DNA of 25,293 nt, taken from the UHGV virus genome UHGV-0110227; one strand, given 5' to 3'. Below are positions 1-4,162 of this stretch, piece by piece (position 1 is the first letter of the stretch; every line of letters begins with the position of its first letter). Below the pieces are notes generated by a model, which was not told the DNA's origin, searched no databases, and worked only from the letters and a program-made list of their open reading frames with translations. The position numbers and the translations under genes are program-made. Source of the stretch: a virus.

Positions 1-22
1 TAGTTACGAGCGACATTGCTCC

Positions 23-50
23 GTGTATTCACTCGTTGGAATGAATACAC
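23..50. repeat. Perfect 9-bp inverted repeat GTGTATTCA / TGAATACAC with a 10-nt loop; possible stem-loop or protein-binding palindrome
   Basis: Arms at 23-31 and 42-50 are exact reverse complements. No T-run follows on either strand, so it is not a canonical intrinsic terminator. Confidence 0.5.
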
Positions 51-76
51 AGTGCAGTGTTTATTCTGTTGTTTAT

Positions 77-92
77 GCTAAAAATAAAGGCC
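77..92 (-). repeat. Conserved 3' flank motif GCTAAAAATAAAGGCC just downstream of the leftward gene 110..475 (copy 1 of 2)
   Basis: Near-identical to the motif at 514-530, which sits downstream of the neighbouring leftward gene. Confidence 0.5.
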
Positions 93-109
93 GACTATGC
101 GTCCTGAAA

Positions 110-475
110 TTACTTAACCAATGATGCTGCATATTCGATAAGGTAAAGTTTTGGAGCAAGCCAAATTTTCAGCCAGTCGAAATAATTGAAGAAAACAACA
201 ATAGAAGTAATCGCTATTCCTGATGTGACAAGTAGTGATAAAAGAACAATATCTGCATCATCTCCTTTATTCCATGCAAAAATCATCAGATAAACACACG
301 CTATAATCACCAATACACAGATAGCCTGAATTCCAGCTGATGATACGGCGTGCCACATCAAAAGCTGATGGATGACATCAGGAATCTGTGCCTGGCTAAA
401 TGAAACAGCCGCGTCTATTCCATTGCTGGCTTTTTGCAGTAGTTCTACGAGAATCTTGTTTGCTTGTTCTTCCAT
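110..475 (-). CDS. Hypothetical small membrane protein (121 aa, two predicted transmembrane helices) in the early-left operon
   Basis: ORF with ATG start preceded by AGGTGA. Hydrophobic stretches AGIQAICVLVIIACVYLMIFAW and IVLLSLLVTSGIAITSIVVFF. I recognise no family. Confidence 0.6.
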   Translation of the reverse strand: MEEQANKILVELLQKASNGIDAAVSFSQAQIPDVIHQLLMWHAVSSAGIQAICVLVIIACVYLMIFAWNKGDDADIVLLSLLVTSGIAITSIVVFFNYFDWLKIWLAPKLYLIEYAASLVK

Positions 476-513
476 ATATCACCTTGATTGTAATAAGCAT
501 GAAATTATTTACG

Positions 514-530
514 GCTAAAAAATAAAGGCC
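514..530 (-). repeat. Conserved 3' flank motif GCTAAAAAATAAAGGCC just downstream of the leftward gene 535..786 (copy 2 of 2)
   Basis: Direct repeat of the motif at 77-92, placed immediately 3' of a different gene. Confidence 0.5.
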
Positions 531-534
531 ACCA

Positions 535-786
535 TCAGGCAGCCTTGTTGTAAATGTTGCAGGTATCAAGTAAGTAATTAGATGGAGCGCCATAAATTAT
601 GAATTCATCGTTTGTCGGGTCCATCTCCATCTCTTGGCCTATTGCCATTCTTGCGTCAGTGTCATCAGCGGCGAAGCATAAAACAGCCCACGCACCCATT
701 GTTTTAAAAAGAACTGCAATTGGCTGTGGTTTTACTGAATTTGCGTTAGCGCGAAAATCACAAATCGCACTTTCATGAAATTCCAT
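535..786 (-). CDS. Hypothetical small acidic protein (83 aa) immediately downstream of N, in the position lambda uses for ral
   Basis: ORF with ATG start in the context AGGTGATATATGGAA, identical to the start context of gene 110..475. The N stop codon overlaps this SD. C-terminus ends NKAA, as I recall for lambda Ral, but the rest is unrelated. Confidence 0.6.
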   Translation of the reverse strand: MEFHESAICDFRANANSVKPQPIAVLFKTMGAWAVLCFAADDTDARMAIGQEMEMDPTNDEFIIYGAPSNYLLDTCNIYNKAA

Positions 787-794
787 ATATCACC

Positions 795-1121
795 TCAAAT
801 AAGTGGTTTGCTGCCTAATTTAATTTTCTGGCGACCAACACAAGTCACCCCCATTTCACTGCGTGGCTTGCTGTACCATGTGCGCTGATTCTTGCGCTCA
901 ATACGCTGCAGGTTGCTTTCAATCTGTTCGTGGTATTCAGCCAGCACCGTAAGGTCTATCGGATTCAGTGCGCTTTCTACTCGTGATTTCGGTTTGCGAT
1001 TCAGCGAGAGAATAGGGCGGTTAACTGGCTTTGCGCTTACCCCAACCAACAGGGGATTTGCTGCTTTCCATTGAGCCTGTTTCTCTGCGCGACGTTCGCG
1101 GCGGCGTGCTTGTGCATCCAT
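795..1121 (-). CDS. N: Transcription antitermination protein N (lambda-type)
   Basis: Translation MDAQARRRERRAEKQAQWKAANPLLVGVSAKPVNRPILSLNRKPKSRVESALNPIDLTVLAEYHEQIESNLQRIERKNQRTWYSKP... matches lambda N as I recall it, including the arginine-rich N-terminal motif. AGGAGA SD upstream. nutL and a pL-like promoter lie upstream on the same strand. Confidence 0.93.
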   Translation of the reverse strand: MDAQARRRERRAEKQAQWKAANPLLVGVSAKPVNRPILSLNRKPKSRVESALNPIDLTVLAEYHEQIESNLQRIERKNQRTWYSKPRSEMGVTCVGRQKIKLGSKPLI

Positions 1122-1319
1122 CTGGATTCTCCTGTCAGTTAGCTTTGGTGATTGGATGGCCGGCGCTGAACCCCGGCTTACTGGTTAGAGCGCCCGCACT
1201 ACCAGTGACGCTGTCTTGAGGCGCAGATTGGTTACTGCTTGCCATGAGCGCTGTTTATACATTGGTCGAGCATCAGCCTGCTCATTCATCCAATCCCAAA
1301 GCCTTCTGCTTTGAATGCT

Positions 1320-1350
1320 GCCCTTCTTCAGGGCTAAATTTTTAAGAGCC
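1320..1350 (-). promoter_or_regulatory. nutL site: boxA-like GGCTCTTAA and boxB hairpin GCCCTGAAGAAGGGC (read on minus strand)
   Basis: Minus strand reads GGCTCTTAAAAATTTAGCCCTGAAGAAGGGC. boxB is the lambda nutL boxB sequence; boxA differs from the lambda consensus at one base. Confidence 0.85.
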
Positions 1351-1389
1351 TCACCTTCATGGTGGTCAGTGCGTCCTGCTGATGGCTAG

Positions 1390-1418
1390 ATAATCACAAA
1401 TTGTGTTCGTGCTGTCAA
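1390..1418 (-). promoter_or_regulatory. pL-like leftward early promoter: -35 TTGACA, 17-bp spacer, -10 GATTAT
   Basis: Minus strand reads TTGACA gcacgaacacaatttgt GATTAT. It sits upstream of nutL and N and overlaps operator-like palindromes. Confidence 0.75.
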
Positions 1419-1539: not shown

Positions 1540-2181
1540 TCAGGAGAATTTCATCATCATCTGCACTGCTACGCCGATTATCTTGCAGTTGCCGTCGATT
1601 GGGATCAACGGATAGGCAGGGTTAAGCCCTTTCAGGTATTTGTTACCGCCATCAATGATTAGCTTCTTGAACGTGGCTTCATTAGCATCTGTCAGCTTCG
1701 CAACTACCAGGCTTCCATTAACGGCTTCCTTTCCAGTGTCGAACAGAACCAGCATACCCTCAGGAACGCTAAGGCCGGTAGGAGCTGTCATTGAGTCGCC
1801 CTGAACCCTGAGCCAGAAGGCGTCACCGACAACGTGACAATCTGATTCATACCACTCATCCACTGCCTGAGGGTTGTACGGCTCTACGGCCTCACTCCAT
1901 GCACCTGCGCTAACCCAGCTAATCAACGGAAACTTTTCCCCTGGCTTGTATTGTCCCTGATAGTTGTCGCCAAAAAGCAGTTCTGCCGGAGCGACGCCCA
2001 AAGCTTTAGCTATTACCTCTGCGTCATCAACACTAACGCTTCTGGTTCCTGATTCATAGTTGCCGATCCGAGATTGTGAAGCCCAGCCGCAAAGCTCCGC
2101 CAGAGCCTTCTGTGAAAGCCCTTTATCTTCCCGTAATCGCTTGATACGCGCGGCGATAGTTTCTGTTCTGTTCATGCGCAT
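1540..2181 (-). CDS. cI: CI-type prophage repressor: N-terminal XRE-family HTH plus C-terminal S24 (LexA-like) autopeptidase domain
   Basis: 213 aa. HTH region LSQKALAELCGWASQSRIGNYESG. C-terminal domain PLISWVSAGAWSEAVEPY...VQGDSMTAPTGLSVPEGMLV...ATFKKL resembles the P22 C2 / LexA cleavage domain with a GDSM serine motif. Divergent from the gene to its right across an operator region. Not the lambda cI sequence. Confidence 0.9.
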   Translation of the reverse strand: MRMNRTETIAARIKRLREDKGLSQKALAELCGWASQSRIGNYESGTRSVSVDDAEVIAKALGVAPAELLFGDNYQGQYKPGEKFPLISWVSAGAWSEAVEPYNPQAVDEWYESDCHVVGDAFWLRVQGDSMTAPTGLSVPEGMLVLFDTGKEAVNGSLVVAKLTDANEATFKKLIIDGGNKYLKGLNPAYPLIPIDGNCKIIGVAVQMMMKFS

Positions 2182-2285: not shown

Positions 2286-2501
2286 ATGAACAACATTGCC
2301 AACGAACGGAAAAAGCTTGGCATCACTCAATCTGCGTTAGCAGGCGCGTGTGGCTGGAACCAGTCCCGCTTAGCTAACTACGAGTCAGGTATCCGGACTC
2401 CAGATTTAGAGTCGTGCCGTCGCCTGGTAAAGGCGCTGAATAAATTGGGGAGCAAGACAACGCTAGATGGCTTGTTCCCGCCGGAACACAAAGCCGCTTA
2501 A
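2286..2501 (+). CDS. cro: Cro-like HTH regulator (71 aa)
   Basis: First gene of the rightward operon. HTH LGITQSALAGACGWNQSRLANYESG is clearly paralogous to the HTH of the adjacent repressor. AAGGA SD. Not the lambda Cro sequence. Confidence 0.8.
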   Translation: MNNIANERKKLGITQSALAGACGWNQSRLANYESGIRTPDLESCRRLVKALNKLGSKTTLDGLFPPEHKAA

Positions 2502-2541: not shown

Positions 2542-2620
2542 ATCAAATTAAACCACACCTATGGTGTATGCATTTATTTGCATACATTCAATCAATTGTT
2601 ATCTAAGGAAATACTTACAT

Positions 2621-2917
2621 ATGGTTCGTGCAAACAAACGCAACGAGGCTCTAAGAATCGAGAGTGCGTTGCTTAACAAAATCGCAATGCTTGGAACTGA
2701 GAAGACAGCGGAAGCTGTGGGAGTTGATAAGTCGCAGATCAGCAGGTGGAAGAGGGACTGGATTCCAAAGTTCTCAATGCTGCTTGCTGTTCTTGAATGG
2801 GGCGTCGTTGACGACGATATGGCTCGATTGGCACGACAAGTTGCTTCGATTCTCACCAATAAAAAACGCCCGGTGTGCAAGACCGAGCGTTCTGATCAAA
2901 TACAAATGGAATTTTAA
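2621..2917 (+). CDS. cII: Transcriptional activator CII (lambda-type)
   Basis: Translation from ATG 2621 (MVRANKRNEALRIESALLNKIAMLGTEKTAEAVGVDKSQISRWKRDWIPKFSMLLAVLEWGVVDDDMARLARQV...IQMEF, 98 aa) matches lambda CII as I recall it. AAGGA SD upstream. The ORF track starts 60 nt too far upstream at 2561. Confidence 0.93.
   Translation: MVRANKRNEALRIESALLNKIAMLGTEKTAEAVGVDKSQISRWKRDWIPKFSMLLAVLEWGVVDDDMARLARQVASILTNKKRPVCKTERSDQIQMEF
2630..2643 (-). promoter_or_regulatory. CII-binding box TTGC-N6-TTGC of a pRE-like leftward establishment promoter
   Basis: Minus strand reads TTGCGTTTGTTTGC, overlapping the 5' end of cII exactly as in lambda pRE. Confidence 0.8.
2861..2890 (-). terminator. Leftward intrinsic terminator inside the 3' end of cII (oop-type)
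   Basis: Minus strand reads ACGCTCGG-tcttgcaca-CCGGGCGT followed by TTTTTT. Confidence 0.75.
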
Positions 2918-3214: not shown

Positions 3215-4162
3215 ATGAGCAATACAGCAAAAATCTACGATTTCAGCGCCGCACACGAGCGCAGGAGCAACAGGATGGAGAACCAGAAAACTGGTTACAT
3301 TCCGTTGTACCGGAGCATTCTGAAACAGTCATGGGCGAAAGATGTTTATCTTCGCACCCTGTGGGAAAACCTTCTCCTGAATGCCGCCAGAAAGCCATAC
3401 AAAGCGAATTTCAAAGGTCATGAATGGCATCTGCAACCCGGTCAACTGGTTGTGACAGCAGCTGATTTAGGTCTTCAGTTATGCGACAGGCATGGCAAGC
3501 CGGCAAGCCGTGATCAGGTTGAGCGGATGCTTCAGGTTTTTGTGAAAGAGGGGATGATCACCATTGATGGAGAGAAGCAAAAAGGTCGTGTGATCACCAT
3601 CACAAATTACCATGAATATGCTCAAAAAATGGACAATTCACCCGCACATGAAGCCGCACAAACAACCGCACATGATGCCGCACATGATGAAGCCAGTAAT
3701 GGCGCGGCTTTCAGCGTACATTCCGCACATGAAAGCGCACATGAAGCCGCACAAACAACCGCACATCATGAACAAGAAGGTATTAACAAGAATATAAATA
3801 ATACCCCCCTACCCCCCAATGGGGGAGGCGATGGGCAGGTTAAACATGAACGTCGCAAGGCAGAACGAATCGACTACGAATCCTTCCTGAACGCCTACAA
3901 CACCGAAGTCGGTGACAGACTGCCACACGCTGTTGCGGTCAACGAGAAACGCAAACGCCGCCTGAAGAAAATCATCCCGCAACTGAAAACGCCAAACGTG
4001 GACGGTTTCAGGGCGTATGTCAGGGCGTTTGTACATCAGGCCAAGCCGTTTTACTTCGGAGACAACGACACTGGCTGGACGGCAGATTTTGATTACCTGC
4101 TGAGGGAAGATTCGTTAACGGGAGTACGGGAAGGGAAGTTTGCAGACAGGGGGATAGCATGA
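3215..4162 (+). CDS. Replication initiation protein (lambda O / P22 gp18 functional class) with an internal repeat linker
   Basis: 315 aa, sited directly upstream of a DnaB-type helicase gene. Central AH(E/D)A peptide repeats are encoded by DNA iterons. Stop overlaps the helicase start (ATGA). Confidence 0.75.
3642..3825. other. Putative origin of replication inside the initiator gene: eight 12-bp iterons (core CCGCACA) in two clusters, an AT-rich tract, and a G/C hairpin
   Basis: Iterons at 3642, 3654, 3666, 3678 and 3723, 3735, 3747, 3759 on a strict 12-bp register. A 31-bp direct repeat lies at 3643-3673 and 3736-3766. AT-rich 3771-3805. CCCCC-aat-GGGGG hairpin at 3813-3825. Same architecture as lambda ori within O. 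Confidence 0.65.

Follow-up and report, generated by a model that had tools for sequence, protein, structure and literature searches.

The DNA studied here, referred to throughout as the window, is a 25,293-nt stretch of a lambda-like phage. Near its start two small genes, A and B, follow the antiterminator gene N, and the stretch itself begins within bsq4, the conserved anchor at the left of a variable interval (Table 1). When the sequence was re-examined, the ORFs, motifs and positions given in a first-pass annotation were all present. That annotation had left out two points: the likely nature of motif 2 as a terminator tail, and the start of the window inside an already annotated bsq4. In the Sf6 record (L001) bsq4 covers 3943-4055, position 1 of the window corresponding to position 4001, and 'boundary sequence 4' has been annotated by others in HK542 and mEp234 as well. 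The Sf6 deletion paper deals with the nin region, not the N-bsq4 interval. The part of bsq4 within the window holds a hairpin with a 14-bp stem at 23-50 (fold z-score -2.94); a scan of positions 1-1500 against Rfam returned nothing relevant.

Table 1. Features at the start of the window (window coordinates; T-run, run of T residues; SD, Shine-Dalgarno sequence; TM, transmembrane)
Feature	Position	Strand	Description
bsq4, right-hand part	1..55		Conserved left anchor of the variable interval
Motif 2, copy 1 (GGCCTTTATTTTTAGC, transcribed strand)	77..92	-	Putative T-run and 3′ stem half of the type II hairpin behind gene B
Type II hairpin, degenerate (AGGACG-CATAGT-CGGCCT)	88..105	-	One C-to-A change breaks the stem
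Gene B	110..475	-	121-aa inner-membrane protein, 2 TM helices (predicted); Sf6 gp34 family, phrog_3054
Motif 1, copy 1 (AGGTGATATATGGAA)	470..484	-	Predicted SD, start codon and codon 2 of gene B
Intergenic spacer, conserved	476..513	-	Between the type I hairpin and the gene B SD
Type I terminator-like hairpin (AAGGCTGCC-TGAT-GGTGGCCTT + T-run)	514..546	-	From terminator scan; includes motif 2 copy 2 (514-530)
Gene A	535..786	-	83-aa acidic soluble protein; VT2-Sakai orf20 family, phrog_2471
Motif 1, copy 2	781..795	-	Predicted SD, start codon and codon 2 of gene A; overlaps the N stop codon
Linker: motif 1 + 3′ end of lambda-type N	781..875	-	Right-hand homology patch for the first gene after N
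N (antiterminator, lambda type)	795..1121	-	Pfam N36, E 3e-25; annotated N in HK633, Sf6 and lambda

Two repeat families at the gene borders

A search for direct repeats of at least 12 nt within positions 1-1200 found the motif 1 and motif 2 families and no others. Motif 1 is the 15-nt sequence TTCCATATATCACCT, present in exact copies at 470-484 and 781-795, as the first pass had observed for the start contexts of the two genes. It occurs exactly twice in the window even with two mismatches allowed, against a chance expectation of 0.01, and none of 100 shuffles reached two matches. By its letters, motif 1 is a strong predicted SD followed by ATG and GAA. The previously noted overlap between the N stop codon and the SD of the first gene was also seen, TGA at 797-795 sharing the first base of AGGTGAT. 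No terminator is predicted between N and gene A, and gene A is therefore probably co-transcribed with N. A consensus scan, which atypical promoters could escape, found no promoter-like site upstream of gene A or gene B; the only such sites on the minus strand were pL at 1418-1390 and a weak one inside gene A, the total being below the shuffle expectation.

Motif 2, reported earlier as the shared 3′ flank of both genes, is 16 or 17 nt long, GCTAAAAA(A)TAAAGGCC, with copies GCTAAAAATAAAGGCC at 77-92 and GCTAAAAAATAAAGGCC at 514-530, which have the exact core AAAAATAAAGGCC in common (80-92 and 518-530). As judged from the sequence, it is the T-run and 3′ stem half of a putative terminator-like hairpin, which in the window is intact behind gene A and broken behind gene B. 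The type I hairpin behind gene A overlaps the stop codon and the last codons of the gene (NKAA*). It was matched by the terminator scan at 546..525, with a 9-bp stem, a T-run and a dG of -13.9 kcal/mol, and in the mEp234 record a 'rho-independent terminator' is annotated where the gene A stop and motif 2 lie. The commonest form of the type II hairpin is AGGCCG-CATAGT-CGGCCT (20 of 31 copies). Its stem, GGCCG/CGGCC, is intact in 23 of the 31, folding at -9.7 to -12.7 kcal/mol, and the window copy folds at -3.1 kcal/mol.

The presumed terminator function of these hairpins is not uniformly maintained. Among 55 type I copies, 22, those of the lambda type, have two disruptive changes. Covariation is mixed: one compensatory change (the pair GGACG/CGTCC in the type II hairpin of locus L111), one wobble and six mismatched copies. 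The elements nevertheless recur behind different genes. Type I lies 3′ of ral in 38 of 40 loci, type II lies behind gene B and families f156, f230, f62, f107 and f210, and a hairpin tail is found behind at least eight unrelated ORF families in all. Likewise, the SD-ATG core of motif 1 heads eight unrelated ORF families in three different upstream contexts, and motif 1 starts all 12 of the gene-B-family genes in the loci compared. The spacer at 476..513 forms the upstream context of 10 of these 12 genes and also stands between ral and gene 34 in Sf6.

Signals of this kind could have converged, an optimal ribosome-binding site and a terminator tail having been selected independently for each gene, a view which is silent on exchange. 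AGGTGAT nearly matches the ideal anti-SD complement, and a hairpin with a T-run resembles an intrinsic terminator, such as the one annotated in mEp234. We nonetheless hold convergence alone to be quite improbable. The identity extends to non-functional positions (the ATAT spacer, GAA as codon 2, and GC(T/C) after the T-run), and the tail sequence is kept even where the stem is broken. The motif is also used by no other gene of the 25-kb window or of 1.14 Mb of related loci, and both motifs fall where homology breaks off and where precise presence/absence joints lie in 99%-identical backgrounds.

Joints in related phages

Roughly 2,300 E. coli records match. The comparison sample consisted of 119 related phage contigs (1.14 Mb) and was anchored on bsq4, an ascertainment bias with which the following counts are to be read. 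All 64 matches to motif 1 and 83 of the 84 to motif 2 lie in the N-bsq4 interval, within 2.5 kb of bsq4 and in one orientation, which excludes the possibility, raised in the first pass, that the motifs are generic sequence found throughout the genome. Both occur in lambda, Sf6 and mEp234 as well. The gene content of the interval is highly variable, with at least 45 distinct gene orders among 98 unique loci.

Homology to the window ends preferentially at the motifs. At 780-794 there are 68 left ends (the 780-784 bin holds 61, most at exactly 781 or 784), and another 46 lie at 505/518; right ends number 43 at 90-98 and 51 at 549-551. These breakpoints, together with the at least eight unrelated families that the motifs flank, bear out the earlier proposal that the motifs mark cassette boundaries. 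Around the motifs run longer conserved linkers of 47-105 nt (1-105, 505-551 and 781-875). HSPs covering 781-847, 781-849 or 781-875 are found in many loci that are otherwise unrelated to the window, and in mEp234 the 781..875 linker survives, no longer coding, behind an N of the HK97 type. It should be noted that other breakpoints, at 55, 65, 105, 810-818, 847 and 875, fall on neither motif; position 55, the annotated end of bsq4, is a right end in 35 loci.

Natural variants display the joints directly. In L008 and L107 gene A is followed by one copy of motif 2 and then bsq4, gene B being absent. L107 matches the window at 99% identity on either side, and gene B is missing exactly between the motif 2 copies. 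In L040 the end of N is joined through one copy of motif 1 to gene B, gene A being absent, and in L087 motif 1 joins gene B to a lambda-type upstream context. Lambda has one motif 2 between bsq4 and ral. The variants with gene A but not gene B would correspond to a crossover inside motif 2, and those with the gene-B family but not gene A to a crossover inside motif 1. These single-copy joints (L008, L107, L040, L087) support the motifs as candidate sites of homologous recombination.

From these comparisons we conclude, with a probability of roughly 0.8, that genes A and B are independent, swappable accessory cassettes 3′ of N. The locus is a real and well-marked example of cassettes joined by a common ribosome-binding/start sequence and a common terminator-like tail. 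That the two genes instead form a functional module, their shared flanks reflecting co-regulation, appears very unlikely to us. The two stand side by side in the window, HK633, L111, L047 and several E. coli prophages, but L008, L107, mEp234 and VT2-Sakai have gene A and no gene B. The gene-B family, for its part, is accompanied by ral in place of gene A in Sf6 and at least five other loci, follows N directly in L040, and is found without gene A in N4-like, phi92-like and Vibrio phages. A terminator-like hairpin also separates the two genes. The first pass had pictured them as a toxin with its partner or an anti-defence factor with an effector; their independent assortment contradicts this. 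Tandem duplication as the origin of the pair is excluded, since the ORFs show no relationship and, from one genome to another, the copies of the motifs assort independently.

Mechanism and relation to known systems

The N-bsq4 stretch of lambdoid pL operons may be regarded as a series of accessory-gene slots in tandem, whose cassettes each have the putative form of a strong SD-ATG(-GAA), an ORF, and a short GC hairpin with a T-run. The two motifs would be the common cores of junction elements serving both as expression signal and as homology patch. Motif 1 would supply an incoming ORF with a near-ideal ribosome-binding site coupled to the upstream stop codon, and motif 2 would be the tail of a weak intrinsic terminator or 3′ stem-loop, through which the N-modified polymerase would read. 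Recombination by Red, Erf/RecT or RecA at the linkers, with co-infecting phages and prophages as partners, could then swap, insert or delete cassettes. As gene B is bounded by the motif 2 repeat and gene A by the motif 1 repeat, each could be gained or lost precisely and separately.

Homologies that are short or diverged can be recombined by Red-beta, whose minimal efficient pairing segment (MEPS) is 23-27 bp (PMC3945230); the RecA value reported alongside is 31-34 bp. The repeats within one genome, at 15-17 nt, are below MEPS, so that recombination between two copies in the same genome would be inefficient. More plausibly, exchange would use the longer linkers, or the joints would be rare events fixed by selection. 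The shortness of the repeats and the breakpoints off both motifs also suit illegitimate recombination, to which most joints in phage mosaics are generally ascribed (PMC3029335). Joints would then arise at random, selection would keep those at gene boundaries, and the short repeats would be side products or scars of microhomology. We consider illegitimate recombination an unlikely source here, because the same joint is found before eight families and behind at least eight, within 47-105-nt linkers, and independent illegitimate events would not regenerate the same junctions. The arrangement of short direct repeats around single promoter-less ORFs is, superficially, integron-like as well. The idea that a dedicated site-specific system (a homing endonuclease, for instance, or a cassette integrase of the integron kind) recognizes the motifs is nevertheless scarcely credible: there is no recombinase or endonuclease gene in or beside the cassettes, the two cassette ends differ in motif, both motifs are expression signals of an ordinary kind, and the crossover points vary within and around them. 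On the preferred reading, homologous exchange at conserved linkers, those ordinary expression signals would double as recombination joints; the joints come from comparison, and the process we infer.

Lambdoid boundary sequences bsq1-5 were reportedly described by Clark et al. in 2001 for HK620 and by Casjens et al. in 2004 for Sf6, and used by Degnan et al. in 2007. Morons were reportedly described by Juhala et al. in 2000. The boundary-sequence concept (cited in PMC3029335) is that of short conserved stretches which mark the borders of genes or modules and have unrelated DNA beside them in different lambdoid phages, proposed as foci for homologous recombination. Our motifs are alike in this: both occupy the same map position across lambdoid phages, and homology breaks at both. 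They differ in that they lie to the right of the annotated bsq4, are shorter, are repeated within one genome, bound single-gene slots and not large modules, and are recognizable expression signals.

Morons are independent transcription units with their own promoter, expressed from the repressed prophage (Cumby et al., 2012, PMC3594210). The present genes resemble them as extra genes that are precisely absent in some relatives, the comparison of L107 with the window placing the added DNA exactly between its neighbours. They also have a deviant base composition (GC 42.5% in gene A and 38.8% in gene B vs. 50.8% in N and 48.9% in the window) and a terminator-like 3′ element, which behind gene B is broken in the window and intact in most relatives. 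However, genes A and B appear to lack a promoter of their own and to ride the pL transcript with coupled ribosome-binding sites. Gene B was considered as a true moron and set aside when the consensus scan found no promoter in front of it.

In T4-type phages, PeSL elements, consisting of an early promoter and a stem-loop, flank ORFans in hyperplastic regions, and through recombination between these elements single genes are inserted, deleted or replaced (Arbiol et al., 2010, PMC2839356; Comeau et al., 2014, PMC4122927). Small motifs with a terminator stem-loop, and presence/absence and replacement variants joined at them, are common to both systems, the analogy being one of mechanism only. The N-bsq4 cassettes have an SD/start joint as their 5′ element and no sigma-70 promoter, belong to another phage lineage with other sequences, and are not known to form mini-circles. 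The locus is, in sum, a new and well-resolved case of known lambdoid boundary-sequence and moron-like mosaicism. It does not overturn current views, since mosaicism at conserved lambdoid boundaries has been described since 2001. What it offers is base-pair resolution of the gain, loss and replacement of accessory genes in the lambdoid early-left operon, Stx-converting and P22-like phages included.

The two proteins and their slots

The acidic character attributed to gene A holds (pI 4.24; 12 D+E vs. 5 K+R), and the two-helix membrane protein proposed for gene B agrees with a hydrophobicity profile that peaks twice, around residues 57 and 86, and with an all-helical predicted structure of three helices (mean pLDDT 78). 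Neither protein is the orphan that it had been taken for: gene A is VT2-Sakai orf20, found in 56 phage records, and gene B is a member of the Sf6 gp34 family, for which there are 4,718 cluster representatives. Neither matches a characterised family. Scans of both against Pfam, NCBIfam and PADLOC gave nothing significant, profile searches of the two families against the PDB found nothing, there were no fold matches, and the PHROGs matches are to families with no assigned function. A structure search with gene B in BFVD returned uncharacterised homologues only, and the PADLOC '2TM effector' hits to it (E 0.06-0.09) reflect composition only.

Gene A occupies the slot that ral and orf28 fill in lambda. 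The lambda genes share its 3′ hairpin and tail, Ral shares the NKAA* end, and orf28 shares the SD-ATG-GAA start. BLASTP of gene A against Ral gave no alignment at E <= 100, and this lack of sequence similarity means that the anti-restriction function of Ral is not transferable to gene A. The last four residues are all that the two proteins share, because the junction falls inside the coding end. From its position, the sole guide here, gene A is likely to be an early factor aimed at the host or at defence. The anti-restriction and exclusion roles raised in the first pass are speculation from position.

In gene B, about 45 N-terminal and 22 C-terminal residues are conserved and the TM core between them is hypervariable; DNA homology to other alleles breaks within the gene at about 175-183 and 365-375. 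Gene B and lambda SieB gave no alignment. A lysis or holin role was dropped after a look for lysis-gene neighbours in unrelated phages, because there the gene sits among early genes. Gene B appears to be a membrane protein with a fast-changing TM core among early genes, its functional assignment, too, resting on position. The Sf6 gp34-like proteins are a very large family of two-TM phage proteins with no Pfam or NCBIfam model.

As Ral, a known anti-restriction gene, sits in the first slot, the other families found there are reasonable candidates for counter-defence or host-takeover screens. A bolder and doubtful extension, to which we give a small though real chance, would make the slot a plug-and-play dock for early counter-defence genes, formed by the 3′ end of N with the SD-ATG joint and by the hairpin tail. 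Gene A and the seven other families that begin at this joint (f156, f107, f62, f87 and others) would then be Ral alternatives, the TM core of gene B might determine the specificity of a very widespread membrane function such as superinfection exclusion, and the motifs would be a ready-made handle for mining anti-restriction and anti-defence genes. The SD-ATG joint, paired with the hairpin tail or with bsq4, can serve as an anchor to harvest the accessory genes of the slot from thousands of prophages. Outside the N-bsq4 locus, members of the gene-B family mostly start with MNEQ and not with MEEQ.

Repeated elements behind N

At its left end the window carries the first part of a lambdoid early-left (pL) operon, encoded on the minus strand, in which the antiterminator gene N is followed by two small genes, A and B. 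Each begins with a copy of a 15-nt start element (motif 1, TTCCATATATCACCT) and is followed by a copy of a 16/17-nt tail element (motif 2, GCTAAAAA(A)TAAAGGCC). The repeats are genuine and plainly not a product of chance. Motif 1 occurs only twice in the 25-kb window, even at 2 mismatches, against a chance expectation of 0.01, and positions 1-1200 hold no direct repeats of at least 12 nt besides the two motifs. Both pairs of copies had been reported in the first-pass annotation, as had an overlap of the N stop codon with the gene A Shine-Dalgarno sequence, and all are present; the stop codon (TGA) overlaps the first base of AGGTGAT. On the transcribed strand, motif 1 (AGGTGATAT-ATG-GAA) spans an extended Shine-Dalgarno sequence, the start codon and the second codon, and motif 2 (GGCCTTTATTTTT(T)AGC) consists of the 3' arm of a short GC-stem hairpin, of which there are two versions, and a T-run.

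Features of the left end of the window
Feature	Position	Strand	Remarks
bsq4 (boundary sequence 4), right-hand part	1-55		bsq4 is an annotated feature of the Sf6 record and of the immunity-region records of HK542 and mEp234
bsq4 hairpin	23-50		14-bp stem; fold z-score -2.94; no T-run on transcribed strand
Motif 2 copies	77-92; 514-530
Gene B	110-475	-	121-aa ORF after N, beyond gene A
Motif 1 copies	470-484; 781-795
Gene A	535-786	-	83-aa ORF after N
N, lambda-type	795-1121	-	Pfam N36, E 3e-25
Terminator-like hairpin	1320-1344	+	GCCCTTCTTCAGGGC and T-rich tail; between nutL/pL and immunity genes
pL-like promoter	1418-1390	-
Immunity region	1540-2917
Candidate repressor-like ORF	1540-2181	-	213 aa; from position and reading of the sequence
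Candidate cro ORF	2286-2501		71 aa; divergent from the repressor-like ORF; from position and reading of the sequence
Further immunity-region ORF	2561-2917		118 aa; from position and reading of the sequence

The genes were initially taken for orphans, which they are not. Gene A, a small acidic protein as described (83 aa, pI 4.24), matches VT2-Sakai orf20 exactly; 56 phage records contain it, among them many from Stx-converting phages, and its family is a small one of enterobacterial prophages (19 clusters). In HK633 the products of both genes are 100% identical to those of the window. Searches of family libraries and the PDB with gene A came back empty, fold searches gave nothing convincing, and sequence comparison found it unrelated to Ral.

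The gene B product shows two TM peaks and its predicted model is helical, in keeping with the two-helix membrane protein proposed earlier; it belongs to the Sf6 gp34 family. It thereby draws attention to a family of membrane proteins that is very large and uncharacterised: a profile search returned 4,718 representatives of 50%-identity clusters (E <=0.001), the best 150 of them being without exception stand-alone proteins 103-184 aa long, and the family has neither a Pfam nor an NCBIfam model. Members in N4-like, phi92-like and Vibrio phages lie in an early-gene neighbourhood, not a lysis-gene one; by sequence comparison gene B is unrelated to SieB. Some 45 N-terminal and 22 C-terminal residues are conserved and enclose a hypervariable two-TM core, and among alleles (Sf6, L011, L078 and others) DNA homology breaks inside the gene, at ~175-183 and ~365-375. 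The swapped core between conserved coding ends thus makes a cassette within a cassette. It is only the position of genes A and B that suggests anti-defence or exclusion roles.

Cassette joints in related loci

The comparative set (1.14 Mb) consists of 119 IMG/VR contigs oriented on the exact 28-mer of the bsq4 hairpin, which occurs in at least that many; being chosen through bsq4 and capped at this number, it yields frequencies that are not population estimates. Within 2.5 kb on the N side of bsq4, and in a single orientation, fall 64/64 matches to motif 1 (<=1 mismatch) and 83/84 to the core of motif 2. The motifs are therefore not generic, and the possibility named beforehand as fatal to reading them as cassette boundaries is removed.

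The points at which homology to window 1-1400 is lost are tightly clustered. Left-end breakpoints lie at 780-794 in 68 loci (61 within the 780-784 bin) and at 505/518 in 46; right-end ones lie at 90-98 (43), at 549-551 (51) and at 55, the annotated end of bsq4 (35). A 12-nt SD-ATG core begins eight unrelated ORF families with three different upstream contexts: orf28 (41 loci), a 156-aa family (17), gene B (12), gene A (5), 62-aa and 107-aa families (2 each), and 52-aa and 87-aa singletons. The full 15-mer stands at the start of orf28 in 43/43 cases, gene B in 12/12 and gene A in 5/5. The hairpin tail follows Ral (38/40), gene B (10/12), a 230-aa family (11/11), gene A (4/5) and four more families.

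Individual joints retain a single motif. In L008 and L107 the 3' end of gene A is connected through one motif 2 to the bsq4 side, L107 being 99% identical to the window on both flanks; in L040 one motif 1 connects the 3' end of N to gene B, and in L087 motif 1 links a lambda-type upstream context with gene B. Lambda is the most telling comparison: it has one motif 2, between bsq4 and the ral stop codon, and both the window and Sf6 have a gene-B-family gene between two copies. Gene A and Ral end alike (NKAA-stop), so that the junction falls within the last codons. At least 45 different gene orders occur in the bsq4-N interval among 98 unique loci, and in these genes A and B assort independently, which disposes of the idea that they form a pair.

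Comparison across the loci shows that single-gene cassettes are bordered by junction elements sharing the motifs as their cores, with natural variants joined exactly at these motifs. The exchangeable cassettes of the first-pass annotation are thus borne out by the breakpoint clusters, the single-motif joints and the unrelated families found at both motifs. The locus illustrates, at good resolution, a form of phage mosaicism that is already known; it is no new type of system. The joints are the same type of phenomenon as lambdoid boundary sequences, a proposal that a passage in PMC3029335 credits to Clark et al. (2001) and Susskind & Botstein (1978). Like morons, the cassettes are precise extra DNA of low GC with a 3' terminator-like element, but they lack the defining promoter of their own. 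T4-type phages offer a parallel in mechanism with their PeSL regulatory cassettes, by which ORFans are shuffled (PMC2839356), although the 5' element is a promoter in PeSL and a Shine-Dalgarno/start joint here.

The locus is chiefly useful in two ways: the motifs can anchor searches for accessory genes in the post-N slot, and gene B leads to its large membrane-protein family. Recurrent Ral-slot families of unknown function include the 156-aa (17 loci), 230-aa (11), 98-aa (9), 62-aa and 107-aa families and a T4 55.4-like 54-aa ORF; a DUF7167 protein is annotated in the bsq4-N interval of one E. coli record.

Proposed recombination linkers, and the hairpins

Cassette exchange would proceed by homologous recombination, using longer linkers that hold the cores: window 1-105, 505-551 and 781-875, the last including the 3' end of N. 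These exceed the reported minima for efficient pairing, 23-27 bp with Red-beta and 31-34 bp with RecA (PMC3945230), whereas the 15-17-nt cores alone fall short, so that recombination between two copies in one genome should be rare. In mEp234 (L124, 1443-1500) the HK97-type N has behind it a leftover, non-coding stretch from the 3' end of lambda-type N (compare window 797-875), together with motif 1. The remnant suggests that the C-terminal coding end of N is itself a recombination linker, and many HSPs ending at 847-849 or 875 agree with this reading.

It is plausible that the elements double as expression signals. Motif 1 would act as a coupled ribosome-binding site, allowing any promoter-less ORF to be translated off the pL transcript; the motif 2 hairpin would serve as a leaky terminator or a 3' stem-loop. 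A terminator scan predicted none between pL and gene A, so gene A is probably co-transcribed with N; gene B, unlike gene A, lies beyond the first hairpin. This type I hairpin (AAGGCTGCC-TGAT-GGTGGCCTT, 9 pairs, dG -13.9 kcal/mol) was detected by the scan and overlaps the gene A stop codon; its equivalent is labelled a rho-independent terminator in the mEp234 record. The type II hairpin after gene B has AGGCCG-CATAGT-CGGCCT as its commonest form among relatives, and its stem is broken in the window by a C-to-A change.

The stems give mixed evidence that terminator function has been maintained: type II in L111 shows a compensatory double change (GGACG/CGTCC), whereas disruption affects 22/55 copies of type I (those of the lambda type) and several of type II. 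The window copy at 88-105 carries one half only of the L111 change (GGACG/CGGCC) and may be an intermediate state. The gene A stop codon (equivalent of window 535-537) is TTA, not TGA, in L107, giving a 91-aa ORF that runs through the hairpin, and in HK633 (L003, 4396-4785) a 129-aa ORF is annotated over gene A.
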